Below the pieces are notes generated by a model, which saw only the letters and a program-made list of their open reading frames with translations, searched no databases and was not told the DNA's origin. A DNA stretch of 64,000 nucleotides from a virus (lineage: Duplodnaviria > Caudoviricetes): the IMG/VR virus record IMGVR_UViG_3300010429_001449. The stretch is one strand, 5' to 3'. A program made the position numbers and the translations under genes. Positions 13,130 through 59,359 of this stretch are shown one piece after another (the stretch's first letter is position 1; each line of letters begins with the position of its first letter).

Positions 13130-13215
13130 TGGTGGGCGAGGGGAGATTTGAACTCCCACGCGGTTTCCCGCACCAGTGCCTGAGACTGGCTCGTCTGCCT
13201 TTCCGACACTCGCCC
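13130..13215 (-). tRNA. tRNA-Leu(CAG)
   Basis: Cloverleaf with long variable arm, CCAGT-CTCAGGC-ACTGG, encoded CCA. Confidence 0.92.
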
Positions 13216-13220
13216 AAAAG

Positions 13221-13297
13221 TGGGGTAGGTAACGGGAATCGAACCCGTGCTTGATGGGCCACGGCCATCCGTGCGAATCCTCTACACTATACCTACC
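13221..13297 (-). tRNA. tRNA-His(GTG)
   Basis: G-1:C73, GATGG-CCGTGGC-CCATC (C33), encoded CCA. Confidence 0.88.
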
Positions 13298-13309
13298 ATC
13301 GTCATTCCT

Positions 13310-13337
13310 AGTATAACAGCGTCCCGCGAAATGTCAA
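13310..13337 (-). promoter_or_regulatory. sigma70-type promoter
   Basis: TTGACA-16bp-TATACT. Confidence 0.85.
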
Positions 13338-13343
13338 GCGGAA

Positions 13344-14486
13344 TTAATCATCATTCGGCGTTCTTGACCCGCATTTCGGACACGTTATGAAGGAAGAAAA
13401 GACGTTCGTGGTGTAAACGGTGCGCCCACAACCCTGACAGTGGAGTGCGCGACGCCCCTCGGCAGGAGACGCAAGATGTTGCTGTTGTGGAGACAACGGC
13501 GTGCCGTCCAGCGACACAGGGCCGACGTAAGGCGCTGTTGGAGCCACCGGGGGCGGGGCGAAACGAGAGTCGCCTGGAAGAATGAGGTTTCCCTGTGGAC
13601 GCGCCTGCGGGCGGGTTACGACCTCATCCGCCTGCGTCAACGGAAACGTGTCGTCGTAGGAAACTTGCTGACTGCGGCCTTCTCGCACGGGAGCCGGAGG
13701 CTGCGGCACGAAAGGACGCGGCGCGGTCGAGAGACGATTTGGTGCGGGAGGAATAGGAGCTTGCTGTCTCCAGATAGGAGGCACAGGTTCCCCGCCGTAG
13801 TCCAACGACGGGTCGAAAAACGCCACGTCTGCCGATGGCGGCGCGGCCCCCGGCTGTCCAAACAGAGGCGATTGCTGACCCGGCTTCATAAGCGTCTGTT
13901 CGGCAATTCGGTGCGTTTGCTCTTGAAGATCGACAGCGGCCTTCTGTAACTGCGCGGGGTTGACGGTCACGACGCCCGGCGGGGCCTGCAACTCCCACAC
14001 GTGAACATTAGACGGAAACTGCTGCAACAGACCCAAAATCTCCTGTTTGCGCTGTACCAAACCGCCGTGCCCTATGCCGGGGAAGTTCAGGTGAAACGTG
14101 ACGTTGGCGTACTCATTAGCCTTTGCGAAAAGAGCTTGCGCAGACGCAAAGATCATATCCGCATCAGCCCGCTGGCGCGGGTTGATTCGCGTCTGGAACA
14201 AGCCAAACGTGCCAAGAAATTCCCGCCCCATAAAGATATCGGTAACGATAACGCCGTACTGCGCATTCGCGACCCCCATCTCTACAATTATCTGACCGAA
14301 CCGAGCATCGATACCGGGAAGAAGCGAGCGCAGTTGCTGCGCCGCGCCGGTTTCCATCAACAAAACGCCGTTCTGTACGACAGACCCCGCCGTGACCAAG
14401 AGGACTTCGTTGATGGGGCACGTGACATTGCCTTTGGGCGTCCGTTGGAAGAACGCCTCGAACATATTGCCGTAACGCTGTATCAC
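13344..14486 (-). CDS. macrodomain-like protein with Pro/Gln-rich linker and C-terminal Zn ribbon
   Basis: GNMF...LLMETGAA...FQT...NFPGIGHGGL; CQGCG...CPKCG. Confidence 0.65.
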   Translation of the reverse strand: MIQRYGNMFEAFFQRTPKGNVTCPINEVLLVTAGSVVQNGVLLMETGAAQQLRSLLPGIDARFGQIIVEMGVANAQYGVIVTDIFMGREFLGTFGLFQTRINPRQRADADMIFASAQALFAKANEYANVTFHLNFPGIGHGGLVQRKQEILGLLQQFPSNVHVWELQAPPGVVTVNPAQLQKAAVDLQEQTHRIAEQTLMKPGQQSPLFGQPGAAPPSADVAFFDPSLDYGGEPVPPIWRQQAPIPPAPNRLSTAPRPFVPQPPAPVREGRSQQVSYDDTFPLTQADEVVTRPQARPQGNLILPGDSRFAPPPVAPTAPYVGPVSLDGTPLSPQQQHLASPAEGRRALHCQGCGRTVYTTNVFSSFITCPKCGSRTPNDD

Positions 14487-14488
14487 GA

Positions 14489-15337
14489 CTAAGCTCCTTT
14501 CTCGGAACGATAATCATTCCGCAACACAAGGGTATCATCTTCTTCAGCCTTGTCAAGGTGAGGCGAGGGTACGTCGTTCCTGTTGTAATAGCACCACGCC
14601 CTTTGTTCGTCCGTTAGCACGGGCCAAATAATCTTGAGACGCCGTTGAGAAAGCTGCAATAACTGATCTCTGTGTTCCTCCGTATCGACGGTGACTGTCC
14701 AATCCGAATAGACAAGACGGTAATCAAAAGGAAGTGCGGCAAAGAGATAAGCAAGCTGCCTCGGTGTAAGTGCGCCGTGCTCCGCAAAATAAGCGGAGAA
14801 TGATTCGGCGTATTGAGGATGACCTGCTCGGCGAAGGGCGCTAAACGCGATGAAAATACGCGCCTGACGCTCTTCTTCTAAACGCAGCGCCCTATCTCTT
14901 TCCGCCCGCTTAAGAAGTTCGTACTCCTTTTTCCGCGCTCTTTCTGCTTGTGCCTGCCGTTCGCGCTCCAATCTGTCAGCCTCATCTCGTTTCCGCTGTT
15001 CTTCTGTCTTCTTGGCGGACAGCAGTTTTCTGAACAAGGCTGCTGCTTCTGTTTCGGTCAACTCGTTTCCGTCAGCGTCTGGGAGCAAGACGCCCAGCTC
15101 CTCTAAGAAATGGAGAATGCAATCCGAACCTATGGAGAGCTTGGCCCCGTTATAACTGTTCCTCATCTCGTAGTGATACCGAAGACGCTTGTTGCCGCAG
15201 ATATCGCAGACCTTGACAGAGTCCTTCCAATCGAAGACTTTGAAGGTGAAAAACCACTCGCGGAATGCCTTTTTAAGGTCTTCCTTCTCTTGGCTAACCG
15301 CAAAGAGATTCGGGGCTACTCTGTTGATCCAATCCAT
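14489..15337 (-). CDS. hypothetical Zn-binding coiled-coil protein
   Basis: CDICG...IGSDCI then charged helix. Confidence 0.7.
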   Translation of the reverse strand: MDWINRVAPNLFAVSQEKEDLKKAFREWFFTFKVFDWKDSVKVCDICGNKRLRYHYEMRNSYNGAKLSIGSDCILHFLEELGVLLPDADGNELTETEAAALFRKLLSAKKTEEQRKRDEADRLERERQAQAERARKKEYELLKRAERDRALRLEEERQARIFIAFSALRRAGHPQYAESFSAYFAEHGALTPRQLAYLFAALPFDYRLVYSDWTVTVDTEEHRDQLLQLSQRRLKIIWPVLTDEQRAWCYYNRNDVPSPHLDKAEEDDTLVLRNDYRSEKGA

Positions 15338-15343
15338 TAGCGA

Positions 15344-15778
15344 TTATCCCCGCGCACACAACAGGAGCTTGGGTTCCTCAAAGGGAACACCGTACTTCTC
15401 GCAGAACACCCGGAGGTCTTCGCGCCACTTGCGTCGTTTGTTGCGCGAGAACGCCTCCGCTTTGATTTCCTTGGGAGACTCGCCCAAAGCATAAACGAAA
15501 CTGTCCACAGCCGCCAAGACACACAGGCGCTTCTTCTCGGTCCCATGAAATATCAAGCGTACCGGGCAAGCAGAAAACACCGTTCTCGCCATGACCCAGA
15601 AGTCGCGCTTGTCTCGATAGGCAGAACACGCAATCCCTTCGGTCTTGGCGAACCACTCCTCAAAAACGAGGCTGCCCCAAGGATACTGAACCGTATCCGA
15701 GAGTGCTATGCCGTACACGATAATGCCTTCTGCCGCGTTCACTACGTTAATCCTTTCTGTTTGGAGAGTGCCGCCCAT
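15344..15778 (-). CDS. hypothetical protein
   Basis: ORF in operon. Confidence 0.55.
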   Translation of the reverse strand: MGGTLQTERINVVNAAEGIIVYGIALSDTVQYPWGSLVFEEWFAKTEGIACSAYRDKRDFWVMARTVFSACPVRLIFHGTEKKRLCVLAAVDSFVYALGESPKEIKAEAFSRNKRRKWREDLRVFCEKYGVPFEEPKLLLCARG

Positions 15779-16674
15779 CCGTCACGTACGACTTTCGCAA
15801 GGTTTCGGGCCGCACGGCTATCATCCAATTCCGCAATATCATCCAACATCAAGGCAACAAGTTCTATGACCTCGCCGTCGGATGGAATGCACAAAGCACC
15901 ATGAGGATGACGGTCAGTAGTACACTCATCGAGACACGGCACGTAGGAAGGCGTCTTAGACAACCCGTTCTCGCGCCGGAAGTCTTCGACGTTGCAGTAC
16001 TCACCACACTTCTCACTGACGCGCTTCGCAACACACACCTGCGCGGCAGTCACGCGCACTGTGAACCCGCCACTCCAATTGAGCGAGCACGGAGGCTCCT
16101 TGACCGCAGGAGCCGCCGCCTGCTTGTCGAACACGCGCTCGTAATAGCGCACTTTCTGCCGCCATTTGCTGATCAGCTTCCGCTTGCTCTTGAGGATGCC
16201 TTCCAACCGCAGCAACTCGGTCGTGTGCTTGATCAGCGTGTCTTTGGCTTTCCAGTAACGCTCCTCCCGAAGTTGCCCTCCGGTACGCGGCGGCTTAGGC
16301 TTGGCGGAATCTTTCAGGCGAATCCGCATGTCCGCAGTCCACGGAACCTCGAATTCCCACCAGGGGGACATGTCGCTATGATGCAAGCCGCGATTGTGTC
16401 CGAATTCGTGAATGGCGATTCGAGCGACCATCGCCACGTCCAGCGTAGGATCGTCCTGCCCCTTGAAGTACGTTGCTCGCGGGACTATCAGCTTGATCCA
16501 CTTGGACGTGTAACTGCCGCGCCCGTGATATCGCTTGCCGCGAGCATACTCGACCTTGACAGTATATCCCTGCGGATCAACACCGTCCTGCTCCATCGCT
16601 TTGACTACGACTTTGCGAATGTCATCCGAACGCCAGCACGTGGCGTTGATGATTCTGAATTGTCTCCCGCGCAT
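15742..16674 (-). CDS. zincin-like metallopeptidase-domain protein
   Basis: HEFGHNRGLHH; GGAGG RBS; own promoter. Confidence 0.65.
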   Translation of the reverse strand: MRGRQFRIINATCWRSDDIRKVVVKAMEQDGVDPQGYTVKVEYARGKRYHGRGSYTSKWIKLIVPRATYFKGQDDPTLDVAMVARIAIHEFGHNRGLHHSDMSPWWEFEVPWTADMRIRLKDSAKPKPPRTGGQLREERYWKAKDTLIKHTTELLRLEGILKSKRKLISKWRQKVRYYERVFDKQAAAPAVKEPPCSLNWSGGFTVRVTAAQVCVAKRVSEKCGEYCNVEDFRRENGLSKTPSYVPCLDECTTDRHPHGALCIPSDGEVIELVALMLDDIAELDDSRAARNLAKVVRDGWAALSKQKGLT

Positions 16675-16714
16675 CCGAGTGTCCTCCAAAAAGGTTTGTC
16701 TGTCCGATACTATT

Positions 16715-16742
16715 ATTATAACAGAAATACAGAGAATGTCAA
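16715..16742 (-). promoter_or_regulatory. sigma70-type promoter
   Basis: TTGACA-16bp-TATAAT. Confidence 0.85.
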
Positions 16743-16781
16743 GGGGAATTTTCGGATAATCGCCGTTGATCTCAGCGGGCG

Positions 16782-17108
16782 TTACGCATCGATGACAAGA
16801 TCGCGGACTTTCCGCACCGTCTCTTTGAGATGATCCATCTCTGCGCGTTCCTCATCCTTATCGTCGTCGATGTCATCAAGCTCTTTTTCCAGAGCGGCGA
16901 TATCAAGTTTAAGCTGGCTGCATTTTTCCTCGGCGTTCTTGAAATGTTTGCAAGCGACAATCAAAAGAGCGACGGGGTCTTTCGTATCATCCGGTAGCGG
17001 ACACCCGTTCCGTATCATCACGTCAACGCAATCGGCCAAGACAACATCTAACGGCGTGTTCTGATAGGTCCGTTTCAGCAAAACCGGCGGTTCGTTTGAC
17101 GAGGACAT
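16782..17108 (-). CDS. hypothetical coiled-coil protein
   Basis: Start MSSSNE coupled to upstream stop. Confidence 0.6.
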   Translation of the reverse strand: MSSSNEPPVLLKRTYQNTPLDVVLADCVDVMIRNGCPLPDDTKDPVALLIVACKHFKNAEEKCSQLKLDIAALEKELDDIDDDKDEERAEMDHLKETVRKVRDLVIDA

Positions 17109-17689
17109 TATGACTTCCTTTCTTGAGCAAGAGATTCCATGTGCTCCAAGAGAGCTTCCTCGCACTCGTCAAACGAGGCACAGAACTCGCCCCACGAAGC
17201 GACAATGCGGCGTTCTGCCGCGTCAAGGATCATTACGCGCCAGGCCCGTTCGACATCCACCGGCTTGTAGCGGTAGCCCGTCTTCGTGACGGTGAAACCT
17301 TCCGGCGCACCTTCGGGCGTTTGTTCCAGTTCGCCTTCTTCTCTGACGATGAAAGCCCGCGCAATGAGAACAATCAGCGCGTCATCCAGAGGCGTCTCGG
17401 CGGCAGTTCCGGCGTTCAGGACTACAAACGGTTCTCGATTCAACATGGCCTTGGCGATGTTTTCTTCCGTCAGAATAGGCGCTGCCACATCAGCCAAAAG
17501 CACACAAGAGTCTGCCAGGGGCTTCAGCAGCGGACTATCGGCTTTCGTCCACGACATGATCAAGCCGTGATCCTCCGCCATCGAGAAGGCTACCCATGAC
17601 GTTGTGCCAAGAGAAGCCATCTCTTCCTCTAACTCCTCCGTGGCGGCGACTGCCACCGGTTTCCCAGCCAAAACAATTACTTTGTCCAT
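17108..17689 (-). CDS. hypothetical protein
   Basis: ORF in operon. Confidence 0.65.
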   Translation of the reverse strand: MDKVIVLAGKPVAVAATEELEEEMASLGTTSWVAFSMAEDHGLIMSWTKADSPLLKPLADSCVLLADVAAPILTEENIAKAMLNREPFVVLNAGTAAETPLDDALIVLIARAFIVREEGELEQTPEGAPEGFTVTKTGYRYKPVDVERAWRVMILDAAERRIVASWGEFCASFDECEEALLEHMESLAQERKS

Positions 17690-18132
17690 TTGGAAACTCC
17701 CAAAGCGTGTATGATGCCGCTGTTTCGGAGCGCAAGAAGGCGTTTGACCATGCGGTTATAGCACTTCCGCTGCGCGTCGGTAAGGTTTATCAGAAAATCG
17801 CCCACATACGGATCATCAATCGGATAGAGGAGAATCGGAACGTCGTGCAAATATGCGTAACAATCTGACATAAGAGCGGCCATAACTCTCGCGTCGAGAA
17901 CAATTATTGCGTCTGGCTTGAACGTCAAATCGCGCAGATGCTTCGAGATCAAGGTGTCCGTCCGCCGCCCTTCTCGTTCCAACAGTTGGATGACGTTAGG
18001 ATCAACCCGCCACGGCGACAGACCCGCAGAGAAAACCTGAACGTCCGGAATCTCATCTCGAAACAGTCCTTCCGCCATCTGACTGCGGCAGCAGTTCGCC
18101 ACACACATGAATAGCAACCGTTTCTGAGACAT
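17677..18132 (-). CDS. low-molecular-weight phosphatase / ArsC family protein
   Basis: P-loop CVANCCRSQMAE, SAG, IDDP. Confidence 0.85.
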   Translation of the reverse strand: MSQKRLLFMCVANCCRSQMAEGLFRDEIPDVQVFSAGLSPWRVDPNVIQLLEREGRRTDTLISKHLRDLTFKPDAIIVLDARVMAALMSDCYAYLHDVPILLYPIDDPYVGDFLINLTDAQRKCYNRMVKRLLALRNSGIIHALGVSKWTK

Positions 18133-18156
18133 TATTGCTCCTTTACCGTCTCCCTT

Positions 18157-18184
18157 AGTATAACAGCGGAAAAGAGTTTGTCAA
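18157..18184 (-). promoter_or_regulatory. sigma70-type promoter
   Basis: TTGACA-16bp-TATACT. Confidence 0.85.
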
Positions 18185-18636
18185 GAGGACGTTTGCTCGT
18201 CTTCGGTTTCGTCCAGACACGCCTCTGGCGTCTCGGCGGGTTCGACTCTACGCGCCGCTTCAATCTCGGCCAGACGCTGCGTGACCGGACACTCGGCGTC
18301 GCATTCTTCTTCCGGATGCAACGCGGCCTCAGACAGATGCGTAAGTTCCTTGAGCGCGGAGACGGCCTTGAGCAGTGATGAGCGCAACTCGATCACGTCC
18401 TTTTCAGGAACCTTCTTGGCTAGGCGATCCATAACTTCCATTGCGCCCGCAAGAGCGGCCAGGGCCGTCACTGACTTGCTGGAGACGACTTCCGCCCACG
18501 GCGGACGATTTGTTGTCGTCAAAGTAGTCAGGTAGTTCCTTACCCGGTTGTTCAAGCAGTCTTGGCACAACCTCCCGTTGGAAGTAATCAGCGTCGTTTT
18601 GCCGCATCTCTTGCAAACACCTTCCTCGAAGCTCAT
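18181..18636 (-). CDS. hypothetical Zn-finger protein
   Basis: CKRCG...CQDC. Confidence 0.6.
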   Translation of the reverse strand: MSFEEGVCKRCGKTTLITSNGRLCQDCLNNRVRNYLTTLTTTNRPPWAEVVSSKSVTALAALAGAMEVMDRLAKKVPEKDVIELRSSLLKAVSALKELTHLSEAALHPEEECDAECPVTQRLAEIEAARRVEPAETPEACLDETEDEQTSS

Positions 18637-19703
18637 ACAGCTTTTCCTTTCTTGGCTTTGCCCGCCGGAGCCTTTGCCACAGGCTCGGCTTCAACAGCTT
18701 CGCGGCCAGTAGCAGGGTCAAACTTCACTATATCCAACGAGCGTCCCTGTGCTCCCTTTGCAGCTTTGGGCAACCGGAGTCCTCGTCTCGCCGAAACGAG
18801 CCGAACGCGACCCCGAACATCGTGTACAAGAGCCTCGCCGGGCACACGCCCTCGAGGATACGTACGTTCCTCGAACTCTCTGTCGGACAGTTTGTTGGCG
18901 AGGGCTGCAATCTTCTTCGGAGAAACAGTCGTGTCTGCGGGAGCGGAACACTCAACGGTCTGAGATACTACATCACCCAGATGCCCGGAGTCTGCCGAAG
19001 GCTTGCGCAACGCGGCATAGCGAGCTTTTGCAGCAATGATCGCTTTCCGCGCATTCTGAGACGCCTTTTTGCGCCCGGCCTTTGTGGTCTTTTCCCGCGC
19101 CAGGTATGAGACAGTACCAAGAGCCTTCGACAACAACTTGTCAACGTCAGAAAGAACATCCTCGGTCTGAGCAAGACGCTCGAAGGCGTGCTTGTGCGCG
19201 TCTGCGAGAGGTTTGTCGTACAACGAGCGAACAAACCGTTTGATGTTCTCCGGCGACGCTTCCGCCTCCTTTTGATGACGCTCTTTGGCTTCGAGTCTCT
19301 CCAAAGCCCGCAGCCAGATTGCTCGGTAAGTATAACGAGCAATCTCTTCCACTTGTCTGCGGGCGGTAAGGAGCGTGTCCGGTTTGCCGGAATTGATCGC
19401 CGCCAACGCGCTTGAGGCGCATTCTCGAATCGCATTCATCATATCGATTGCGGGTACAGCCAAGCCATAAAAGCGCATCCTGTCCATACACCGACGGCAG
19501 AACCCGACTTCGGAAAGAGGCTCTGTGTCACAGAAACAGCCCGGACAAGACAGTTTTGGCACATCAAGGGGAGACACGCCTTCTTCAGCAAGACCGAGCG
19601 CTCGCGCTTCTTCGGTCTGACGATTCAACTGATTAAAGAGTCGTACAGCAGGATCGTCGGCATTTTGTTGCAGTTGTTCCAAGGACGGATTCGGCATGAT
19701 CAA
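18633..19703 (-). CDS. hypothetical protein
   Basis: CPGC...CRRC, basic C-terminus. Confidence 0.65.
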   Translation of the reverse strand: MIMPNPSLEQLQQNADDPAVRLFNQLNRQTEEARALGLAEEGVSPLDVPKLSCPGCFCDTEPLSEVGFCRRCMDRMRFYGLAVPAIDMMNAIRECASSALAAINSGKPDTLLTARRQVEEIARYTYRAIWLRALERLEAKERHQKEAEASPENIKRFVRSLYDKPLADAHKHAFERLAQTEDVLSDVDKLLSKALGTVSYLAREKTTKAGRKKASQNARKAIIAAKARYAALRKPSADSGHLGDVVSQTVECSAPADTTVSPKKIAALANKLSDREFEERTYPRGRVPGEALVHDVRGRVRLVSARRGLRLPKAAKGAQGRSLDIVKFDPATGREAVEAEPVAKAPAGKAKKGKAV

Positions 19704-20064
19704 CTCCTTCCGCGCATAACACGCGGTCTAAAACGGAATGTTACCCAGCCGCTCGGCTTCGTAACGCTCCAAGACACGTCGTTTAATGGCCTTGATTACA
19801 TCAAGAACAGAAGCGTTGGGCATTTGTTTGTGTTCGGCCTGAAACCATTCAAACGCCCAGTCGCCAAAACGATACTTGAGATAGCTCTCTATCCACCGCA
19901 GCGCGTCCGGGTGCGCGGGGGACATATCGAGCTTTTGATTTACGAGATCGCGTTCTGGATCAATCATCATTAAAAAAAGAGGCGAGCGACGGAACTGACG
20001 TGACGTTTCAGTTCGGATACGTCTGGACAGAACCTTTGTGGAGATTCGTCGCTCGCCTACACCT

Positions 20065-20092
20065 AGTATAACGGACTTCAACAATTTGTCAA
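20065..20092 (-). promoter_or_regulatory. sigma70-type promoter
   Basis: TTGACA-16bp-TATACT. Confidence 0.85.
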
Positions 20093-20097
20093 GGGGC

Positions 20098-20132
20098 AAA
20101 AAGAAAGAGCGCACTGTTTCCAGTACGCTCTT
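20098..20132 (-). terminator. intrinsic terminator closing the tRNA/tmRNA operon
   Basis: AAGAGCGTACTG-GAAA-CAGTGCGCTCTT followed by TCTTTTT. Confidence 0.75.
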
Positions 20133-20188
20133 GTGTAGTGCGCCGGTATTCATCGTCGCCTTCCCATAACAGGTTAGCGTTGATTGGT

Positions 20189-20263
20189 TGGAGCGGTCAG
20201 CGGGATTCGGACCCGCAATGGCTACCTTGGCAAGGTAGTGCCCTACCGTTGGGCGATGACCGC
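20189..20263 (-). tRNA. tRNA-Gly(GCC)
   Basis: CTACC-TTGCCAA-GGTAG, U73, encoded CCA. Confidence 0.9.
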
Positions 20264-20499
20264 TATTTGTTTATCGCTTCTGATCGAACAATCGGACCGC
20301 GACCGCCGCTATGAACTACTGCGCTGAACTCCCGCCCAGTAGCTTTGTGAACGGCTTCGATTTTGGTTGAGCCTTGGACATCACCAACCTTCGTGACGCG
20401 AAAGCCGTGGTTGTTGCCAATGCGAGGCACGGCGTCGAACGGCTCAAACAACGAATCCCTAACGAACTTGTCGAACTGCTCTGTTACTGTATCTGGCAC
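20263..20499 (-). CDS. small hypothetical protein between tRNAs
   Basis: ORF fills the spacer; ends AVHKATG similar to AVHKASG in the next spacer ORF. Confidence 0.5.
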   Translation of the reverse strand: MPDTVTEQFDKFVRDSLFEPFDAVPRIGNNHGFRVTKVGDVQGSTKIEAVHKATGREFSAVVHSGGRGPIVRSEAINK

Positions 20500-20507
20500 A
20501 GTGAAAG

Positions 20508-20583
20508 TGGTGGAGCCAGCGGGAGTTGAACCCGCGACCTCTAGTCTGCCGGACTAGCGCTCTCCCAACTGAGCTATGGCCCC
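20508..20583 (-). tRNA. tRNA-Ala(GGC)
   Basis: G3:U70, CTAGT-CCGGCAG-ACTAG (C33), encoded CCA. Confidence 0.9.
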
Positions 20584-20591
20584 ACAGCGTC

Positions 20592-20879
20592 CTACTTATT
20601 AGCGGCTTCCGCCGCTCGCCTGGCAGCACGGTCTTTTGCCGAGATGCCTTTGAACACGACGCCCGATACAGCAGCGCCGGATGCCTTGTGGACAGCCTTT
20701 ACGAGCGATGAGTCCACACGATTGTAAACACTATGCACTACGAAACCGGCCTTGTCAAGCTCTCCTGACAGCCTGGCCGTGCTAACGATTGCCGCGCACA
20801 GTTCGGTGAATTGTTCCTGCGACGTTTTCTGCGGAGCCATCTGAGGCGTCTCCGACCGGGCCTTCTTCGTCCTAGCCAT
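20592..20879 (-). CDS. small hypothetical protein
   Basis: MARTKK start with AAGGAG RBS. Confidence 0.6.
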   Translation of the reverse strand: MARTKKARSETPQMAPQKTSQEQFTELCAAIVSTARLSGELDKAGFVVHSVYNRVDSSLVKAVHKASGAAVSGVVFKGISAKDRAARRAAEAANK

Positions 20880-20959
20880 GCGTACTCCTTTGGAGGGGCG
20901 GGGGAGATCGCTATCTGGAGGGAGAATAACGATCCCCTGTACCGCCCGCGAGAAAATGA

Positions 20960-21035
20960 TGGTGGAGCCAGCGGGAGTTGAACCCGCGACCTCATCCATG
21001 CGAGGGATGCGCTCTCCCAACTGAGCTATGGCCCC
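20960..21035 (-). tRNA. tRNA-Ala(CGC)
   Basis: CATCC-CTCGCAT-GGATG, encoded CCA. Confidence 0.92.
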
Positions 21036-21226
21036 TGAAAAGCATCGAGCAGAAGAAACAACGCAAGGCCGCTTGAGAAAACGCCGAGCGGCACGCCAAG
21101 CATTCCCATATGTATCCAACACCACAAGAACGGATAGATTACAACCGCAACGCTGCCTATGACAACGACCACACACAGCGAGCCAACGAAGGCGAAGTCT
21201 TTAACGTCCTGCCACGACACAGACAT
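21026..21226 (-). CDS. small two-TM membrane protein
   Basis: Two hydrophobic segments, AGGAG RBS. Confidence 0.55.
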   Translation of the reverse strand: MSVSWQDVKDFAFVGSLCVVVVIGSVAVVIYPFLWCWIHMGMLGVPLGVFSSGLALFLLLDAFQGP

Positions 21227-21361
21227 ATCGATCTCCTGCGCCGGAAAACCGGTGGTCGCGCTGTTATTTTCCGGAGACGGGCTAGAATGTGTTGTAATTT
21301 GGCTTGGCCGTTTCTTTGTTCACCCCGTCATAGCTATCTTAACAGCGCGACCAGAAAAAAA

Positions 21362-21436
21362 TGGAGCGGGCAGCGGGACTCGAACCCGCAATGAACAGCT
21401 TGGAAGGCTGTAGCCCTACCATTGGGCTATGCCCGC
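21362..21436 (-). tRNA. tRNA-Gly(TCC)
   Basis: ACAGC-CTTCCAA-GCTGT, encoded CCA. Confidence 0.92.
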
Positions 21437-21446
21437 GTTTTTGTTG

Positions 21447-21920
21447 CAGACGCCGCCGAGTCAGGACGGCGTCCGATCTTTTCCCGCACATGGCGGGTAA
21501 GTCTTGGGGGCCGGAACCGCCGAGACGGTCCTGCCGACTCCACCACCCTGTCAAACATCTCGGCGGACAGGGACGCCTGAGTAACGAGAGGCCGGTCAGT
21601 TCGAGACTGCATGCCGGTCGACTGACGCCTGACTGTGAGACGACTCTCGTGGCCTAGGCGCGAAAGTCGGCTCTGTGTCCCTTCCGCTGTCGCAGTGCCG
21701 TTGGGCGCTGTGGCAAACGCGGCCTCTCAAGAGCAAGGGCAATCTCTGCAGAGACGACCCTGCGCCCGTTCGCTTGTCGCTACTAGGGGGAGCAGATAGT
21801 TACACCGAGCCGGGCCGAGGCTGCGGGGGCAGCAGCGCCCGGCCTACAGGCTCAGTAAGCGTCGGCGAACCGACGCGAAATGGGGAGAAAAGCGGCTGGC
21901 ACATCCCCGCTTGCGCGGAG
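21447..21920 (-). ncRNA. large structured ncRNA of unknown class
   Basis: No credible ORF, nested helices, UUCG/GCAA tetraloops, 11-bp pseudoknot; inside stable-RNA operon. Confidence 0.55.
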
Positions 21921-21927
21921 AAAAGTG

Positions 21928-22007
21928 ATCGGGACGGCTGAGGAAGGCATAACCTCGCCGTCAATGGAGCGTCGGCCCATGACGTGTTGTGTGGCAGCCG
22001 TCCCGAT
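21928..22007 (-). ncRNA. small structured RNA
   Basis: 13-bp perfect closing stem ATCGGGACGGCTG/CAGCCGTCCCGAT directly after tmRNA CCA. Confidence 0.45.
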
Positions 22008-22012
22008 GTGAA

Positions 22013-22389
22013 TGGTGGACGCGGGGGGCATTGCAACCCCCGTCCAGAAATGGTTCCTTCTGCGCTTGCTACATGTTTAGCTGGCCTATTGTGTCTCGCG
22101 CTAAGAACCCCGGCCAGCGGGGTTTCCTTCGCGCCATCTCTAAAGCTTTAGCCCTTACGCCCAAGAGAACTGACGTAAGACCGATCCCGCTAGTTGACGC
22201 CTGCAAACAGACGCGGGCTTCCGCAAGCAGACGTGTTGCCTCTTGTTAGGCAGCAAGCCCAACCGCTTCGCGGCTGGGGAATTGCACGATGTTATCGGCA
22301 CTTGTGTTTTGTCAGGCGTTTTACGAGATTCCTGGCGATCTCGACATGCAACACAGACATCTTCCATCCTGTCGATTCTTGTCGCGCCC
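22013..22389 (-). ncRNA. ssrA: tmRNA, tag (A)ADNIVQFPSREAVGLAA*
   Basis: GGGCGCG/CGCGTCC-ACCA acceptor with G3:U70, 5' GAATCGAC motif, T arm, tag ORF 22246-22299 ending LAA-stop. Confidence 0.93.
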
Positions 22390-22397
22390 GTAGAAAA

Positions 22398-22472
22398 TGG
22401 TAGCGGGAGCCGGGGTCGAACCGGCGTGAACGGCTTATGAGGCCGTTGAGTATCCACCTACTCTATCCCGCA
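22398..22472 (-). tRNA. tRNA-Met(CAT), 1:72 mismatch (initiator-like?)
   Basis: ACGGC-CTCATAA-GCCGT; U1:U72 but lacks the three G-C anticodon pairs. Confidence 0.85.
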
Positions 22473-22482
22473 TTAGGGTCTA

Positions 22483-22558
22483 TGGTGGAGACGAGGGGAA
22501 TTGAACCCCCTACCTCCTGCGTGCAAAACAGGCGCTCTCCCAAATGAGCTACGTCCCC
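22483..22558 (-). tRNA. tRNA-Ala(TGC)
   Basis: CCTGT-TTTGCAC-GCAGG, encoded CCA. Confidence 0.92.
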
Positions 22559-22576
22559 ACGAATCTCGCGGTCCGA

Positions 22577-22589
22577 GTTGTCAAAGAGC
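22577..22589 (-). promoter_or_regulatory. boxA-like element
   Basis: GCTCTTTGACAAC. Confidence 0.7.
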
Positions 22590-22611
22590 TACGTCAAACG
22601 ACTCTACACCT

Positions 22612-22639
22612 AGTATAACGGAGAGGAACAGAATGTCAA
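22612..22639 (-). promoter_or_regulatory. sigma70-type promoter
   Basis: TTGACA-16bp-TATACT. Confidence 0.85.
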
Positions 22640-22656
22640 GAGGGAAATCGAAAGAA

Positions 22657-23088
22657 TCACAGGACTTTTACAAGCTGTCGGATGGCTTCGCGCAATGCTG
22701 CGTCGGCGTTCTGGCTTTTCGCGTAAGACATTTGCAGAGTTGTAAAGCCGGTTTCCAACTGCTGAAGCTTGCGCTGAGATTCGGCCAGGTGCTGTTTGGC
22801 GTTGTCTCGGTCGGCCCGCAGCGCCGCCGAAATCGCTTCTTGTTGTGTGTTCGGGGGCGGCGCAGGCGCGGCTGTCCTTCGTTCGTGCAAGAGCGAGACG
22901 ATGATGACTCGGAGATCGTCCGTATCCGCGTCCTTTACAAGCTGAATCAACGCGGTTTCATCGCCCTTCTGTAATGCAGCTACCGCGTCTTCCCATGCGT
23001 GTTGAACCAGAATTGAGCGGGCGCTCTCCAATATGGCTCGAAGACCGTCTGTCAAGGCTGCGGAGCAACTGTTACACGTTGGAGGCAT
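22657..23088 (-). CDS. hypothetical coiled-coil protein
   Basis: MPPTCNSC start with AGGAG RBS. Confidence 0.65.
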   Translation of the reverse strand: MPPTCNSCSAALTDGLRAILESARSILVQHAWEDAVAALQKGDETALIQLVKDADTDDLRVIIVSLLHERRTAAPAPPPNTQQEAISAALRADRDNAKQHLAESQRKLQQLETGFTTLQMSYAKSQNADAALREAIRQLVKVL

Positions 23089-23104
23089 AACATCTCCTAG
23101 AAAT

Positions 23105-23178
23105 TGGTGGCGGGAGCGGGTATCGATCCCGCTATTCGACCTTATGAGAGTCGCGTGATGCCTTTTCACTATCCCGCC
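23105..23178 (-). tRNA. tRNA with CAT anticodon (elongator Met or Ile2)
   Basis: CGACT-CTCATAA-GGTCG, encoded CCA. Confidence 0.85.
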
Positions 23179-23196
23179 ACACAACCAGCAAAACAA

Positions 23197-24168
23197 TCAA
23201 AGCAGAGGGGGAACCTGTTCGGTGTCGCCCATGCGAAATACCTTAATCACTTCATCCGTCTTTATAGCGTTCCACGCCTTGACCAGCAGGCCGAAAAGGT
23301 ATCCGGGCGTGTGCTTGGTGGTAGAACGATACTGCTTCAACAGTTTGGTGTTCAGTTCGGCCAGATTAGGCAGCATTCTGCCGAGAGAGCTACTGTAGCC
23401 GCCGGTCTTGAATGCGGCCTCGAAGAAAGGATCAACAAGATCGCTGTCTTTTTCTTTGGCCAGAAAGTGAAAAGCCACTACCCACGCTCTGGGCAGACCT
23501 TTCACTATAGATTCGTAGGGTTGCGCTCTAACCAGGCTGTCCGTGAGGCTGGCGTCATTCTCTTTCACGAATTGGCGAAGCTCTAAGTTCGACACGTCGC
23601 CTTTGGAGTAGCTGGAATTCGCGTAAATGCGCTTCATATTAAACACTTGGATAACTCGCGCCGCCGCGCTCTTGTCGGTTCCGCGCTTGATTTCATCCAG
23701 CAGATTCAGGTTGTCTCCTGCAGTTCTGGCTTTGCCACTATCAAGAACAGACAAAGCGGCTTCGTCTGCGCGGCATCCATCAATCACCGTGTCGTTGTAC
23801 TGAAAAACAAGAAAGACACACGTAGCCCCAGTTTTCTTTAATGCCACCAAGCGATGCTGACCATTACGCACCCGTCCAGCGGCATCGATGATGATAGCAT
23901 CTGGAAGCAAGGGCCACTGCTTGTTAAGCATGTCCCTGCTGTACATATTAACACGATACGGACTAATATTCCGGTTTCGACCCGTCGCACCCAAATAGTA
24001 ATCGACATTATGAGGTCCGATAGCCACCAACGAAACTGTAAACGGTAACTTGAGTCCGTCAGGAACTTTCAGACTCTGCGGACCACGCACAATAAATTGA
24101 GCAATGAATTCGTCCTGCGACAACGTGTACTGCGGAACAACACCAGTATCCATCTTCTGATCGTCCAT
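23197..24168 (-). CDS. ParB/Srx-like N-terminal domain protein
   Basis: NRNIS...YSRDM...W...IIIDAAG...NGQHRLVAL...LDSGKART. Confidence 0.7.
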   Translation of the reverse strand: MDDQKMDTGVVPQYTLSQDEFIAQFIVRGPQSLKVPDGLKLPFTVSLVAIGPHNVDYYLGATGRNRNISPYRVNMYSRDMLNKQWPLLPDAIIIDAAGRVRNGQHRLVALKKTGATCVFLVFQYNDTVIDGCRADEAALSVLDSGKARTAGDNLNLLDEIKRGTDKSAAARVIQVFNMKRIYANSSYSKGDVSNLELRQFVKENDASLTDSLVRAQPYESIVKGLPRAWVVAFHFLAKEKDSDLVDPFFEAAFKTGGYSSSLGRMLPNLAELNTKLLKQYRSTTKHTPGYLFGLLVKAWNAIKTDEVIKVFRMGDTEQVPPLL

Positions 24169-24233
24169 CACACAACTCCTGTAAAAACTACGAAAAAGCA
24201 TCGCTACAACAGCGACGTAACACCGCAACGAAA

Positions 24234-24311
24234 TGGTCGGGGTGGCCGAAATCGAATCGGCGGCCTCCAGTACCCCAAACTGGCGCTCTAACCAGACTGA
24301 GCTACACCCCG
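24234..24311 (-). tRNA. tRNA-Pro(GGG)
   Basis: CCAGT-TTGGGGT-ACTGG, C1:G72, encoded CCA. Confidence 0.9.
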
Positions 24312-24319
24312 GAAGAAAG

Positions 24320-24397
24320 TGGTCGGAGTGGCGGGACTTGAACCCGCGACCTCGTGGTCCCGAACCACGCGCTCTACACAGGCTGAGCTACACTCCG
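24320..24397 (-). tRNA. tRNA-Pro(CGG)
   Basis: CGTGG-TTCGGGA-CCACG, encoded CCA. Confidence 0.9.
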
Positions 24398-24408
24398 ACG
24401 AAGAAGAA

Positions 24409-24490
24409 TGGCCGACGAGGGTGTAGAGAGGTTTGTTTTGGCGCTCCCTTGCGGGGGCAGGTAACATGTACTCCCTACGGCATTCGGCCA
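24409..24490 (-). ncRNA. short Y-RNA-like RNA (copy 2)
   Basis: UGGCCGA-AUGCC-GUAGGGAG-UACAU...AAAC-CUCUCUAC-ACCCUCG-UCGGCCA; GNCGAANG motif. Confidence 0.7.
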
Positions 24491-24495
24491 AAAGA

Positions 24496-24575
24496 TGGTC
24501 GGAGCGGCGGGAATCGAACCCGCGAAAACCTCTCGGTCCCAAGCCGAGCGCTCTACCAAGCTGAGCTACGCTCCG
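24496..24575 (-). tRNA. tRNA-Pro(TGG)
   Basis: CTCGG-CTTGGGA-CCGAG, encoded CCA. Confidence 0.9.
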
Positions 24576-24579
24576 TTTG

Positions 24580-24850
24580 CTTACAAAGACCGGCGCGGCA
24601 ACGCCGGTCTCCGTGGAAAGGATTCCAATGTCCAAACAGACGGCGGCGCGTTACAAAGCCACACGCCGTGGGCAAAACGTCATGCGCCGCCTCGAAAGAC
24701 GGCGCAGGTACTCCTTCCACACGTGGTGGATGAGCAAAGAGTTATAACGCACAGCAACCGTGTTGATCAAGCACGGCGGCACGTACTCTTGTGCGCCGGA
24801 ACTACCTCTCGACATTCGACTGCCGCCGGTACGCGCTTGTCGAGAGACGC
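24580..24850 (-). ncRNA. putative structured ncRNA
   Basis: Run of hairpins including a UUCG-capped one; no credible ORF; between tRNA genes. Confidence 0.4.
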
Positions 24851-24857
24851 TGTTGAC

Positions 24858-24934
24858 TGGTCGGGACAGTACGGAGTCGAACCGTTAATTTCCGAGCCTC
24901 GCGGTCGGCGTACTGCCGTTGTACTATCGTCCCG
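24858..24934 (-). ncRNA. atypical tRNA-like RNA (Pro-type acceptor, no canonical anticodon loop)
   Basis: CGGGACGA/CUGUCCCG-ACCA, D arm GUAC/GUAC, T loop UUCGACU, anticodon arm capped CC-GCGA-GG. Confidence 0.65.
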
Positions 24935-28065: not shown

Positions 28066-29631
28066 TCAGGACGGAAAACCTCTGCTGACCCAATCGATAG
28101 CCTTCTTGGTGCGGGCCAACCGTTCTGCTTCTTGTCTAGCCAGGGCGAGAGCGTCGTCCCGCGAACGAATCGTTCCTTCTAGTTGCGCGTCCTGTACAGC
28201 CGTCAAGACCTCGCTGAATATTGGACTGGGCGAGAAGCCCATCGCAATAAGGTCGTGTCCGGTCAAGAGCGGTTTCGGCTTCACCTGTTCGGGAGGAAGC
28301 TCTTCTTTCTTGCGCCGGAGCCACTCGTAATCCGAAAGATCGCCGTTGCTTCCCACAGCATCGGCGCGATGAAGGGCCAGCAACCGGTCGAACAGAGGAT
28401 GCGCCATAATGCGCTTGAGCTTGGACAACTTCATGTCCTTGGCGTACGTCGGCACTAAGTGATGCTCAACAAGCCACTGGATAGCCTCAACATCAGCGTT
28501 GCTGAGCCTCATCCTCTTGCCAATCTCTCCTATCATCTCGGCCCCGACATCCTCATGTCTGTGGAACGTGATCCGCTGTTTGGCGTCGTTGAAGGCTTGT
28601 GTCTTAGGCTTGCCCACGTCGTGAAGGAGAGTAGCCCACGTCAAGACCAGATCGCCTTTAGGTTCCAGCTTATCCAGCATCAAAAGCGTGTGTTCCCATA
28701 CCGTACCTTCGGGGTGGAAGTCTTCCGGCTGCTCAATACCCTTCGTGGCGGCCATCTCGGGAAGCACTTTATCCAAAAGGTTCAAACCGTCGAGCAGCCG
28801 GAGTGCTTGCCCCGGATGTTGCGTTTGAAGCATCTTCCCTAACTCGTCGGTTATACGCTCTTGGCTGATGCCCGTGATCTTGTCCGCGTTGCTCTTTATG
28901 GCGTCGGCAGTCTTCTTGTCCATCTCGAAGCCGAAACGCGCCGCAAAACGGACGGCGCGGAGCATACGGAGATAATCCTCTGCAAATCGGTCATTAGGGT
29001 CGCCTACGGCGCGTAAGACGCCGTTTTCCAGGTCTTGTTGGCCTCCAACGTAGTCGATGACCTTCTTCTCTTTGGGGTCGAAAAACAAGGCGTTTATCGT
29101 GAAGTCGCGCCGCTCAGCGTCTTTTTCAGCGGTCGAGAAGCTCACTTCGTCCGGATGCCGTCCGTCCGCATATCCGCTTTCAGTCCGGAAGGTTGCGATT
29201 TCAAACTCGTCATCTCCATCTCGAACCCTTGACACGCCGAAGGCTTCCCCCGCAAACTTGGATTCGGGCCATATCTTGGAAACTTCGTCCGGCGTCGCGG
29301 AAGTTGCTATGTCTATGTCGTGACAGTCACGACCGAGAAGCATGTCTCGCACACAGCCGCCCGCAAAATAGGCTTCATGCCCGGCGTCCTTCAAACGCTC
29401 AACAATGTTCGTGGCGGCTTTGCCTTGCTGGGAATCGAGAACCGCCGCCCAAGCATCTTCTTTGATCTTCTTCTCGGGCTTCTTTTCTTCTTCTCCTTCA
29501 GCGGCTCCGGCGGCAGAAGTAAACTGCCCGGTTTCAGGGTCTTTGCATCTGCTGCCTGGTTTACCGGGAGCGATTTGACACGGCTTGTCGTCGGCTTTCC
29601 TGAATGCTGTTTGTATCCAATCATAGGGCAT
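28066..29631 (-). CDS. cca: CCA-adding tRNA nucleotidyltransferase with HD domain and YDW leader
   Basis: AGGCVRD, DIDIAT, RRDFTINA, EDYLRMLRAVRF, QERI, LLHDVGKP. Confidence 0.92.
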   Translation of the reverse strand: MPYDWIQTAFRKADDKPCQIAPGKPGSRCKDPETGQFTSAAGAAEGEEEKKPEKKIKEDAWAAVLDSQQGKAATNIVERLKDAGHEAYFAGGCVRDMLLGRDCHDIDIATSATPDEVSKIWPESKFAGEAFGVSRVRDGDDEFEIATFRTESGYADGRHPDEVSFSTAEKDAERRDFTINALFFDPKEKKVIDYVGGQQDLENGVLRAVGDPNDRFAEDYLRMLRAVRFAARFGFEMDKKTADAIKSNADKITGISQERITDELGKMLQTQHPGQALRLLDGLNLLDKVLPEMAATKGIEQPEDFHPEGTVWEHTLLMLDKLEPKGDLVLTWATLLHDVGKPKTQAFNDAKQRITFHRHEDVGAEMIGEIGKRMRLSNADVEAIQWLVEHHLVPTYAKDMKLSKLKRIMAHPLFDRLLALHRADAVGSNGDLSDYEWLRRKKEELPPEQVKPKPLLTGHDLIAMGFSPSPIFSEVLTAVQDAQLEGTIRSRDDALALARQEAERLARTKKAIDWVSRGFPS

Positions 29632-29646: not shown

Positions 29647-31518
29647 TCAATAAAGATCGAACACGCCTTCTTGAACCAGGCGGCGCAGGCGGCTGACACG
29701 CTCGTCGATCTCGTTCCCATAAAACCCGTGCCGCAACAGAGTACGACGGAACGCGCTGACGTTCACGTTTTTCAGCTTCTCGTACACATCGTCAGCAATA
29801 GGTTGCTGGTGCAGGGGATAACCGAAACTTGTTGCTCGGAACGTCCCGTAGTACATACCGCCATTGTCGATAGCAACGACTCGTCCCTTTTCCGTCAACA
29901 TAATATTGCCGCCGTGTCGATCCGCGTTCAACATAATCGCATCCAGCGCTAATATTCTGTGCAGCCAACCACTATCTTCGCTATCCAAAAACGCATTCGT
30001 GCTGACCGCTGGCATCGCATCAGCGATATCAAAGTTATCGGGGAACCCAAGACGATTAACGTCCGTCTGCAAAGAGACGCCTTGGAATGACCCATGCTTA
30101 TGCGCAAATTCGCCGCCCAAATTGGCGGTAGGAGGCACTATATTGAAGCCCAGGACTTGATCGATGTCGTAAGCAGCCTCCTCAGCGTATGCCGTTCCGT
30201 GCTGCGCATTGAGTTTGCACAGCGCTCGGCTACCGTCTGCTGTAGTGAGCCAGAACGTAGTGTTTATACCGCCGCTTTCGCTTAATTCCTCTCGATCACC
30301 GGGTTCCGCCTCCGCGAGCGCGGCTTCGAGAATAGCCTTGTTAGCGGGTGATCCCAGCGGAATGTCGTCGGGAGTGCTTGCGCTAATGCGCCCAATGGTC
30401 TCTCGCGTTTGTGCCGCGCTCTCCAGTTGCTGCTCGGTTGCAAGAGTTAAGTCGTCTCCTTCAGAGGCGATCTTGTGATCGAGCACAGCGGCAAGAGCAG
30501 TAACGCCCAAGAGGACTAATGATTTCCCACGGCGCAACCCTCTAATGAACATCTCAGTCTCTTCTGCGATGATCTGGGAATCTCCGTCAGGAGCGTACTT
30601 GGCAAGCCATCCACTCACGTCCTTCTTGTAGCTTTCAACCTCAGAGTCGTCGGCAATAAGCGCGTCAGTCCGCTCCTCCACAGCGAACATACCAAACAAC
30701 TCCTTCACAACAGCCGCCTCGATACGATACTCATGCGCTATATTCTGTATGCGCCCCGCCTGCGCGGAACCGCCGGTCTTGGCAAGATTAATCGCCCATA
30801 GCGTAGAATAAGGCGTTCCCTTATAGGTCAACCCACCAACCACAGCGCTCGCTATCTGCTCGTAGATTTGAATGTCAGCCGGACCTACATAACCTTGAGT
30901 ATAGTTGTACGACGCCTTGACCGAGGCTACCGAAATACCATTCTGAAGACACTCTTCGTTGTATTCATCAGCCGCTTGCTTTAGGGCATCGCGCTCAGCG
31001 GCAGGAACAGCGCCGGTCTTGTCCAACGCTGCCGAGAAGAACTCTGAAATAATCTCATCCTTACTAAGATTACCGGCTCTAACGCGATCAAGAAGATTTT
31101 GGTAAGCTGGGGTGTGATAAAGCTCGTCCTGAGACCAGTGAAACACGCGCCCTATTCCCATGCCGTCGTAGACACTATCTAACACCGCATGAACACCGGC
31201 AGTATCGCCGGGGCGCAATGCACCAAGGGCGTTAATCTTGTCAGACGCAGCCTTGTAAACGCTCTCCCCTAAAGCGCTTGATTCCACGCCGTAACCTTGA
31301 TCGCGCCTCCGGGATATCTCGCGTTCCTTGGTGGAGGACTTCCTTTCTTCGCTCCTGTGCTGTGACGCCTCCGCTCCTTGCGCAGTACCTGCTCTGCCCG
31401 CCGACGTAAACTCACCCGTAGCAGGATCGTGACAACGATTCCCCACTCTGCCGGAGCCGCGACTGCACTCGCTCTGCTCCTGCTTCTCCAGCGCGTACTT
31501 GATCCAATCGTAGATCAC
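29647..31518 (-). CDS. YDW-leader protein with C-terminal PI3/4-kinase/HipA-like kinase domain
   Basis: GGIN, K, EEAAY..D..LG...VPPT, NADRHGGN, AIDNG. Confidence 0.8.
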   Translation of the reverse strand: MIYDWIKYALEKQEQSECSRGSGRVGNRCHDPATGEFTSAGRAGTAQGAEASQHRSEERKSSTKEREISRRRDQGYGVESSALGESVYKAASDKINALGALRPGDTAGVHAVLDSVYDGMGIGRVFHWSQDELYHTPAYQNLLDRVRAGNLSKDEIISEFFSAALDKTGAVPAAERDALKQAADEYNEECLQNGISVASVKASYNYTQGYVGPADIQIYEQIASAVVGGLTYKGTPYSTLWAINLAKTGGSAQAGRIQNIAHEYRIEAAVVKELFGMFAVEERTDALIADDSEVESYKKDVSGWLAKYAPDGDSQIIAEETEMFIRGLRRGKSLVLLGVTALAAVLDHKIASEGDDLTLATEQQLESAAQTRETIGRISASTPDDIPLGSPANKAILEAALAEAEPGDREELSESGGINTTFWLTTADGSRALCKLNAQHGTAYAEEAAYDIDQVLGFNIVPPTANLGGEFAHKHGSFQGVSLQTDVNRLGFPDNFDIADAMPAVSTNAFLDSEDSGWLHRILALDAIMLNADRHGGNIMLTEKGRVVAIDNGGMYYGTFRATSFGYPLHQQPIADDVYEKLKNVNVSAFRRTLLRHGFYGNEIDERVSRLRRLVQEGVFDLY

Positions 31519-31945: not shown

Positions 31946-31973
31946 ATTATAACGGAATGATAGCTATTGTCAA
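31946..31973 (-). promoter_or_regulatory. sigma70-type promoter
   Basis: TTGACA-16bp-TATAAT. Confidence 0.8.
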
Positions 31974-50357: not shown

Positions 50358-50603
50358 TTAATCCGATCCGGCAGACAATGCCTTGCCCGCCCAGTCTACA
50401 CGAGACGAACGCTTAGGAGAAACAGCCTCGAAGAATTCGCTCGACGCAACATCAGACGCAACCAAGTTGCCTTTATCATCAAAACGCACGCGGCGTACTT
50501 TGCGATCAGGACGAACGCGAGAAACAACAGACGCCAGTTTCCTTTCGACGATAGCCAAGTCGCTAAAATCCGTCGGTTGAAATCCCTTTCGTCGTTCCGT
50601 CAT
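50358..50603 (-). CDS. small hypothetical protein with C-terminal DW..AL motif
   Basis: Coupled ORF ending RVDWAGKALS. Confidence 0.6.
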   Translation of the reverse strand: MTERRKGFQPTDFSDLAIVERKLASVVSRVRPDRKVRRVRFDDKGNLVASDVASSEFFEAVSPKRSSRVDWAGKALSAGSD

Positions 50604-55764: not shown

Positions 55765-55980
55765 GCCTATGCTCCAAAACCAACCTTCACTTTGCCGCCG
55801 CCGTCAACCTTGTCGCTAGAACGCACTTTGATCTTCCGAGCCTTCGGCGCAACAGGAACCAACGGCGCGTCGGACGGACAAGCCAGCAGACATAAAACCA
55901 TTACCTTGGGACGTAGAGCGAGCGTCGTCTTGTCCATGCCTTGTAAAATACCCGATGAGTAACAACGATACAAGCGGCAA

Positions 55981-57613: not shown

Positions 57614-57626
57614 GCAAGGAGACGAA

Positions 57627-59350: not shown

Positions 59351-59359
59351 GGAAACCAC

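Follow-up and report, generated by a model that had tools for sequence, protein, structure and literature searches.

A tRNA nucleotidyltransferase gene (28066-29631, minus strand) was analysed in a 64,000-nucleotide stretch of DNA (the window) from IMG/VR virus record IMGVR_UViG_3300010429_001449, which belongs to a giant, uncultured phage known here from sequence alone. The encoded protein of 521 amino acids (aa) carries a DW motif on both termini (two copies), which is newly found here. As a whole, the best explanation is a CCA repair enzyme with DW docking tags, for which the capsid interior is the leading receptor candidate (probability roughly 0.55). The unusual point is a strictly terminal motif under selection that marks both ends of the enzyme and, within a single phage clade, no fewer than six further, unrelated proteins. 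The presence of a CCA enzyme and its predicted repair role are ordinary and already in the literature: phage CCA enzymes are common, with a role known as a prediction, and in jumbo phages they were already predicted to restore tRNA ends (Iyer and colleagues; PMC7824862). Phage-borne tRNA nucleotidyltransferases were matched in 506 of 50,697 phage records, and no DNA-level match to the phage was found among these 50,697 records; in IMG/VR, neither a protein search nor an exact 33-mer gave a match to it.

The public gene calls agree on an ATG as the start of the gene; a TTG start is likewise open two codons 5' of it. The identical protein is present on five contigs of up to 0.2-1 Mb (anaerobic-digester assemblies); the digester samples with this phage include ENA ERZ795054 and JGI 3300009776. 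The Pfam matches in the 521-aa protein are the PolyA_pol head (PF01743, 1e-38), the PolyA_pol_RNAbd neck (PF12627, 2e-18), the HD domain (PF01966, 3e-11; HDIG 2e-9) and a weak C-terminal match to tRNA_NucTran2_2. Residues ~60-505 constitute an intact class II tRNA nucleotidyltransferase with an HD domain. The preliminary description of this DNA had placed a leader of ~60 aa ahead of such an intact enzyme, and the open reading frame (ORF), Pfam and the homologue start at residue ~66-70 agree with it. The parts of the gene are as follows (pN and pS denote nonsynonymous and synonymous differences between two phage lineages):

28066..29631 (-): tagged CCA-adding enzyme, whole gene, 521 aa counted from the ATG
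29593..29631 (-): N-terminal tag M-P-Y-D-W-I-Q-T-A-F-R-K-A, residues 1-13, short helix predicted at 4-13
29512..29580 (-): Cys/Gly knuckle C-x11-C-K-D-P-E-T-G-Q-F-T-S-A, residues 18-40
29455..29511 (-): charged low-complexity linker, residues 41-59, less constrained (pN 0.235)
29011..29373 (-): nucleotidyltransferase head domain with GGCVRD, DxD and RRDFTIN
28747..28932 (-): neck/RNA-binding domain PolyA_pol_RNAbd, after the nucleotide-selection motif ED..R..RAVRF
28405..28698 (-): HD phosphohydrolase domain, residues H, HD, H, H, D kept
28069..28116 (-): phage-specific C-terminal tail K-K-A-I-D-W-V-S-R-G-F-P-S, second DW-motif copy, 2 aa before the stop

A six-frame scan of about 120 kb of the phage gave ten occurrences of DW-x3-[AG][LF], eight of them terminal (3-5 aa from the start or 2-5 aa from the stop). 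Six terminal copies were at N-termini, on five leader genes and on an aldo/keto reductase starting M-G-L-Y-D-W-V. The other two were at C-termini, on the CCA enzyme and on an 81-aa ORF beside a GNAT-like gene. Terminal positions are a few percent of coding residues (rough estimate), and the terminal placement is therefore far beyond chance. Besides the CCA enzyme, the window holds these genes with a leader or a C-terminal copy of the motif:

29647..31518 (-): 623-aa PI3/PI4-kinase-like protein, upstream gene, same leader
50600..57138 (-): second leader-bearing cluster, three genes with diverged/weaker leader copies
start 57138 (-): 385-aa protein, diverged leader, unknown function
start 55764 (-): 790-aa protein, diverged leader, HExxH motif
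start 53065 (-): 821-aa protein, diverged leader, GNAT-like C-terminus
50358..50603 (-): 81-aa ORF ending R-V-D-W-A-G-K-A-L-S-A-G-S-D, C-terminal DW-motif copy

The relatives show the same terminal pattern, including both ends of the CCA enzyme. The C-terminal tail, which reads ...K-K-A-I-D-W-V-S-R-G-F-P-S-stop here and ...I-D-W-P-G-R-A-F-S-T-stop in the relative, is absent from the cellular homologues listed. Given the strict terminal placement, the motif acts like a short docking peptide usable at either end, and a docking function of the DW tag is in our view quite probable. Outside the window, a 190-aa protein of the same phage (L118:13215-13787) starts M-S-F-D-W-I-K-Y-A-R-D-G...Y-S-D-G-T-F, very similar to the tag of the kinase (Y-D-W-I-K-Y-A-L) and to Y-A-D-G-T-F in the 385-aa protein; from this likeness it is probably a compact eighth tagged member that the regular expression missed. 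A shared small adaptor gene was considered and rejected, as the small ORFs beside the tagged genes are dissimilar across clusters.

Three parts make up the leader: first a tag of the form M-x-Y-D-W-hydrophobic, then a Cys/Gly knuckle that closes with C-(R/K/H)-D-P-x-T-G-x-F, and last a charged linker. Its length was set at ~59-68 aa because bacterial homologues align from residue ~66-70 and AlphaFold confidence climbs from ~60. In the leader, 29 of 67 positions are identical between the CCA enzyme and the adjacent kinase-like gene (E 2e-12), and the related phage has retained it on both. One of the 8000 scored homologues covers the whole protein, leader included (P0001 of the related phage, 73% identical), while the other matches listed are cellular, 433-484 aa long, with alignments beginning at residue ~66-70. 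Between the two phage lineages, pN was 0.157 over tag and knuckle (pS 0.745, saturated) vs. 0.166 in the enzyme body and 0.235 in the linker, with pS saturated in all parts (0.71-0.75). Tag and knuckle are under the same constraint as the enzyme body, and a chance origin is excluded. It is the protein sequence that is conserved: kept residues are encoded by different codons and the upstream DNA is unrelated, so that an RNA-level cause of the shared 5' end was rejected. A Sec or lipoprotein signal peptide or lipobox was also rejected, the first 60 residues being charged and amphipathic, without a hydrophobic core.

It is very improbable that the leader lies outside the working protein, either with the true start downstream or as a neutral remnant of the recombination that acquired the gene. 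The leader is disordered in the AlphaFold model (predicted local distance difference test, pLDDT, 38-54, with a single short helix at the tag, vs. >90 in the body), and no family in Pfam or PHROGs covers it. However, residues 30 to 79 contain no ATG, GTG or TTG codon; the start codons that follow fall within the conserved fold and lack a ribosome-binding site, while GGAG stands 8-13 nucleotides 5' of each annotated leader-gene start. Moreover, two or more phage lineages carry the same leader on genes unrelated to each other, and the constraint on tag and knuckle equals that on the body at saturated synonymous sites.

A word-indexed search (5.8e9 proteins) and an exhaustive profile search (1.84e9 representatives) with the leader each found five proteins, and all matches came from this small phage clade bar one false positive. 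The latter (P0127, 2869 aa, E 8e-10) was rejected because its kringle repeats, N-Y-C-R-N-P-D-G, imitate the knuckle. In cultured phages there was no leader match better than E = 2; the best, in an Erwinia phage virion protein, is internal rather than N-terminal and was treated as chance. A metagenome scan with an alignment of the leader-bearing GNAT-like proteins returned a single 5.4-kb contig, from the related phage. In the representative library, a distant kinase-like homologue (P0128, 635 aa) has a nearly unchanged knuckle (G-N-R-C-H-D-P-K-T-G-R-F-T-S-A) and a tag H-I-D-W-I-R-R-W-L beginning at residue 7. The knuckle may be the better-conserved half of the leader in remote relatives.

Judging by its homologues and fold, the phage protein is very probably a CCA-adding enzyme. 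Cellular homologues are 47-53% identical to it over residues ~70-505. Class II (Pol-beta superfamily) head motifs A and B (GGCVRD, DIDIA, RRDFTIN) and the motif D nucleotide-selection pocket (EDYLRMLRAVRF) are present. The phage protein keeps 59 of the 59 invariant columns of a 55-sequence alignment, and the HD metal ligands H314, H337-D338, H359, H391 and D424 are invariant across the 55 sequences, its own among them. The closest solved structures by sequence and fold were the CCA-adding enzymes 1miv and 6ibp/6qxn (Geobacillus, Planococcus; target template modelling score, TM-score, 0.79-0.83). In this family, a deletion in the flexible loop marks the CC-adding enzymes; the loop between motifs A and B of the phage protein has no gap relative to the Geobacillus enzyme. 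Bacterial orthologues were found in genome contigs by an alignment-based scan, whereas a single-protein scan gave nothing. In four of the five bacterial genomes with an orthologue, this was the sole PF01743 gene, and tRNA genes without CCA made up at least 5/8, 9/14, 9/16 and 2/10 of those sampled in the four genomes. Because it is the sole PF01743 gene and many tRNA genes of these bacterial genomes lack CCA, the cellular clade does full CCA addition. We infer the CCA specificity of the phage enzyme from this orthology, the fold matches and the undeleted flexible loop.

A core that is a poly(A) polymerase, or that adds only A or only CC, for instance in tailing or marking RNAs, is improbable. 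The pcnB subfamily model reaches 234 bits over head and neck, E. coli poly(A) polymerase and the Aquifex A-adding enzyme match well by sequence and fold, and the motifs are common to all these activities. However, the poly(A) polymerase models score 234.5 vs. 305.65 bits (TIGR01942) and 158 vs. 702 bits (NF008634), with a match limited to residues 68-297, and the A-adding enzyme model scores 89 vs. 1440. The undeleted flexible loop argues against CC addition. Furthermore, the best matches are true CCA-adding enzymes, and the orthologues are the sole family members in genomes that require CCA addition de novo.

In the tree, bacterial homologues follow phylum and the cellular clade comprises Acidobacteriota, Verrucomicrobiota and Planctomycetota. 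The two phage copies group together on one long stem (support by the Shimodaira-Hasegawa-like approximate likelihood ratio test, SH-aLRT, 99), and this clade is loosely placed among Planctomycetota. From this placement, the phage gene appears to be an old capture of a bacterial housekeeping gene by the ancestor of the clade. We propose that this ancestor took up a bacterial class II CCA-adding nucleotidyltransferase with its C-terminal HD phosphohydrolase, and that the ~59-aa N-terminal leader and the 14-aa C-terminal tail, each with a copy of the DW motif, would have been added by the phage. The head, neck and HD architecture and the catalytic residues are alike in the bacterial class II enzymes (e.g. 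E. coli Cca, 'multifunctional CCA addition/repair protein'), but the cellular homologues listed have neither the leader nor the 14-aa tail. Tunturiibacter phage Tunturi_5 (gp279) and mycobacteriophages Myrna and Phabba likewise have phage-borne tRNA nucleotidyltransferases. The matches listed for CCA enzymes of other phages all begin at query residue 66-88, none reaching the leader; gp279, the nearest cultured-phage enzyme, has 17 residues ahead of the fold and no leader.

The role of the enzyme was considered together with the RNA genes of the window, in which ARAGORN found 13 tRNAs, 12 of them confirmed by Rfam at gathering score:

13130..24934 (-): 13 tRNA genes and one transfer-messenger RNA (tmRNA), encoded 3' CCA in all

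The tmRNA (22013-22389, minus strand, 138 bits in Rfam) has the 3' end ...GUCCACCA. The preliminary description had also stated that all tRNAs and the tmRNA encode CCA, and this holds for the present set. The tRNA-Ser(CGA) at 24858-24934 (minus strand) was called by ARAGORN only: it is below the Rfam gathering score and, at 77 nucleotides, short for a tRNA-Ser. It adjoins the Y-like RNAs and may be a tRNA-like RNA instead of a working tRNA. In E. coli, all tRNA genes encode CCA and cca serves repair. As the phage tRNAs and tmRNA already encode CCA, the enzyme would serve repair or maintenance and not tRNA synthesis, and a repair rather than a biosynthetic role is likely. We propose that, in the course of infection, it rebuilds or maintains 3' ends that have been damaged on tRNAs of the phage and the host. 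The preliminary description had suggested such tRNA 3'-end repair, and the orthology, the intact catalytic and HD residues, the encoded CCA and the RNA-repair-rich phage all favour it. The Cas12a3 antiphage defence cuts tRNA (A)CCA tails, with viral countermeasures unknown according to its authors (PMC12851939). Since Cas12a3 clips these tails, any phage CCA enzyme is a directly testable counter-defence candidate.

The phage has several RNA-repair companions: Ro60 with Y RNAs, Thg1, an RNA ligase, NADAR and macro-domain proteins. Thg1 (3'-5' tRNA-His guanylyltransferase family, L123:3244-4074), the RNA ligase (PF09414, L123:7204-7854) and NADAR (L123:11228-11881) are encoded in the same phage about 45-55 kb ahead of the window start. 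Together with Ro60, the macro domain and the CCA enzyme, they are a broad RNA-repair and anti-ADP-ribosylation toolkit. The gene 3' of the CCA enzyme (27309-27998, minus strand) has its own promoter and encodes an HD-type protein matching phrog_19425 'phosphohydrolase' (6e-19), which may be a second RNA-end healing enzyme. The related phage (L001, L114) has these genes in the same order: kinase, CCA enzyme, phosphohydrolase, then a Cys-rich protein of 169-172 aa. A nicotinate phosphoribosyltransferase (36549-37745, minus strand, 3e-65) and a macro-domain protein (31998-32474, minus strand) are present in the same accessory region, as candidates for countering defences that act by NAD depletion or ADP-ribosylation.

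The DW motif would be a portable terminal docking signal, being found also on the kinase-like, GNAT-like, HExxH, aldo/keto reductase and small partner proteins. Its receptor is probably phage-specific and phage-encoded, since the leader is confined to this clade among 1.84e9 representatives. We propose a phage-encoded assembly as the most likely receptor; the leading candidate is the procapsid interior, in which case the tagged enzymes would travel with the DNA. By analogy with known loading signals, identification of the receptor with the capsid is tentative, somewhat short of an even chance. The fuller scheme, in which DW loads the capsid from either terminus and the CCA/HD enzyme would be packed in the head and injected with the DNA, is doubtful.

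Two known loading signals, the capsid-targeting sequences of T4 and the targeting peptides of encapsulins, make packaging in the virion plausible by analogy. The T4 sequences (IPI-III) are short N-terminal peptides portable between unrelated proteins, and T4 Alt, a packaged ADP-ribosyltransferase injected with the DNA, has propeptides at both termini (PMC9026906). The layout is alike (N-terminal and portable, then followed by a linker in the phage leader), but there is no sequence similarity, and the T4 signal is 10-19 aa long and cut by the prohead protease, whereas the DW tag is known here from genes alone. Encapsulin targeting peptides are short, C- or N-terminal, joined by a flexible linker, and load unrelated enzymes into an HK97-fold shell (PMC8346489). 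Their GSL-type consensus is unlike the DW motif, and the phage shell would be a DNA-filled head. Polyvalent proteins have domains predicted to be delivered with DNA (PMC5512222). The payloads of polyvalent/MuF effectors overlap with those of the tagged proteins (zincin-like HExxH, GNAT, weakly ParB-like, kinase, nucleotidyltransferase), but those effectors are long chains of modules, while the tagged proteins have one module each and no detected MuF, portal or DarB-type anchor. For the CCA enzyme itself, Pfam and PHROGs gave no MuF, portal or DarB-type anchor domain; it is a single module with accessory genes as neighbours. The 'cargo' reading of the leader in the preliminary description is, by these analogies, a fair hypothesis rather than a finding.

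The expression signals were also analysed. The kinase/CCA operon is headed by a promoter of a class that is repeated along the minus strand:

31946..31973 (-): consensus promoter TTGACA-N16-TATAAT, heading the operon 129-aa ORF/kinase-like gene/CCA enzyme
349, 2383, 13337, 16742, 18184, 20092, 22639, 25256, 28057 (-): promoters matching the consensus
31973 (the operon promoter above), 33914, 37794, 41683, 42883, 46626, 47307, 49632, 63471 (-): further promoters matching the consensus

These near-identical promoters (TTGACA-N16-TATA(A/C)T, extended box c(C/T)GTTATA(A/C)TA) number 18 on the minus strand vs. 0.25 expected on both strands. They head the tRNA clusters, Ro60, the Y RNAs, the nicotinate phosphoribosyltransferase gene and most accessory operons, and recur in 56 kb outside the window (L115, L118, L120, L123). 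The second leader-bearing cluster has no consensus promoter. Since the kinase/CCA operon has a promoter of the tRNA class, ordinary de novo expression is available to it.

Several points weigh against a tagged CCA repair enzyme docking in the capsid. The promoter, of sigma-70 type and shared with tRNAs, Ro60 and accessory genes, looks like one for early/general and not head-module expression. Capsid, portal and protease genes were absent from ~56 kb along ENA contig NODE_126, ending past the aldo/keto reductase. The leader model is of low confidence (pLDDT 38-54), with just two sequences covering the leader. Motifs alone cannot separate class II CCA enzymes from poly(A) polymerases with certainty. 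The protein scores below the NCBIfam cut-offs for Bacillus-type (PRK13299, 270.4 vs. 290 bits) and actinobacterial (TIGR02692, 248.6 vs. 438.8 bits) CCA enzymes, which is explained by the phage enzyme belonging to a different cellular clade. Finally, the Cas12a3 cut (ACCA; PMC12851939) takes the discriminator base as well, so that CCA addition alone may not suffice.

The DW tag might instead dock the enzymes on a hub outside the virion, with nothing packaged: a cytoplasmic scaffold or condensate, a chaperone/adaptor, or a protease/unfoldase, which would control the activity or lifetime of the tagged enzymes. This is as doubtful as the packed and injected enzyme. Recruitment of clients to a hub or a protease by a short terminal motif is common. 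The promoter of the operon is a consensus one that looks early and is shared with tRNA and accessory genes, small partner ORFs carry the motif too, and the five full leaders are far from recognised structural genes, the ~56 kb of extra sequence having given only the short tag of the aldo/keto reductase. However, no candidate hub was identified, the small ORFs adjoining the tagged genes are mutually unrelated, the payloads resemble known injected effectors (PMC5512222), and jumbo phage heads often carry many ejection proteins (PMC10052503).

If the DW motif does load the capsid, the phage enzyme would be the first virion-delivered tRNA-repair enzyme, countering attack on tRNA 3' ends before phage gene expression. 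RNA repair could then be delivered instead of expressed, and the motif would be a new simple handle for placing chosen enzymes in a large phage head. Should it prove not to be such a signal, it would mark a hub of the phage at which a kinase, a reductase, a tRNA repair enzyme and acetyltransferase-like and peptidase-like proteins come together.

About nine small plus-strand genes (57296-62073) diverge from the tagged-gene cluster, and are an orientation island amid a minus-strand region. This island is driven by the sole plus-strand consensus promoter (57244-57271). TnpB/IS605 OrfB (Cas12f-like) genes are scattered along the phage, at 41750-42895 (minus strand) in the window and at L117:15202-16371 and L118:16769-17893.

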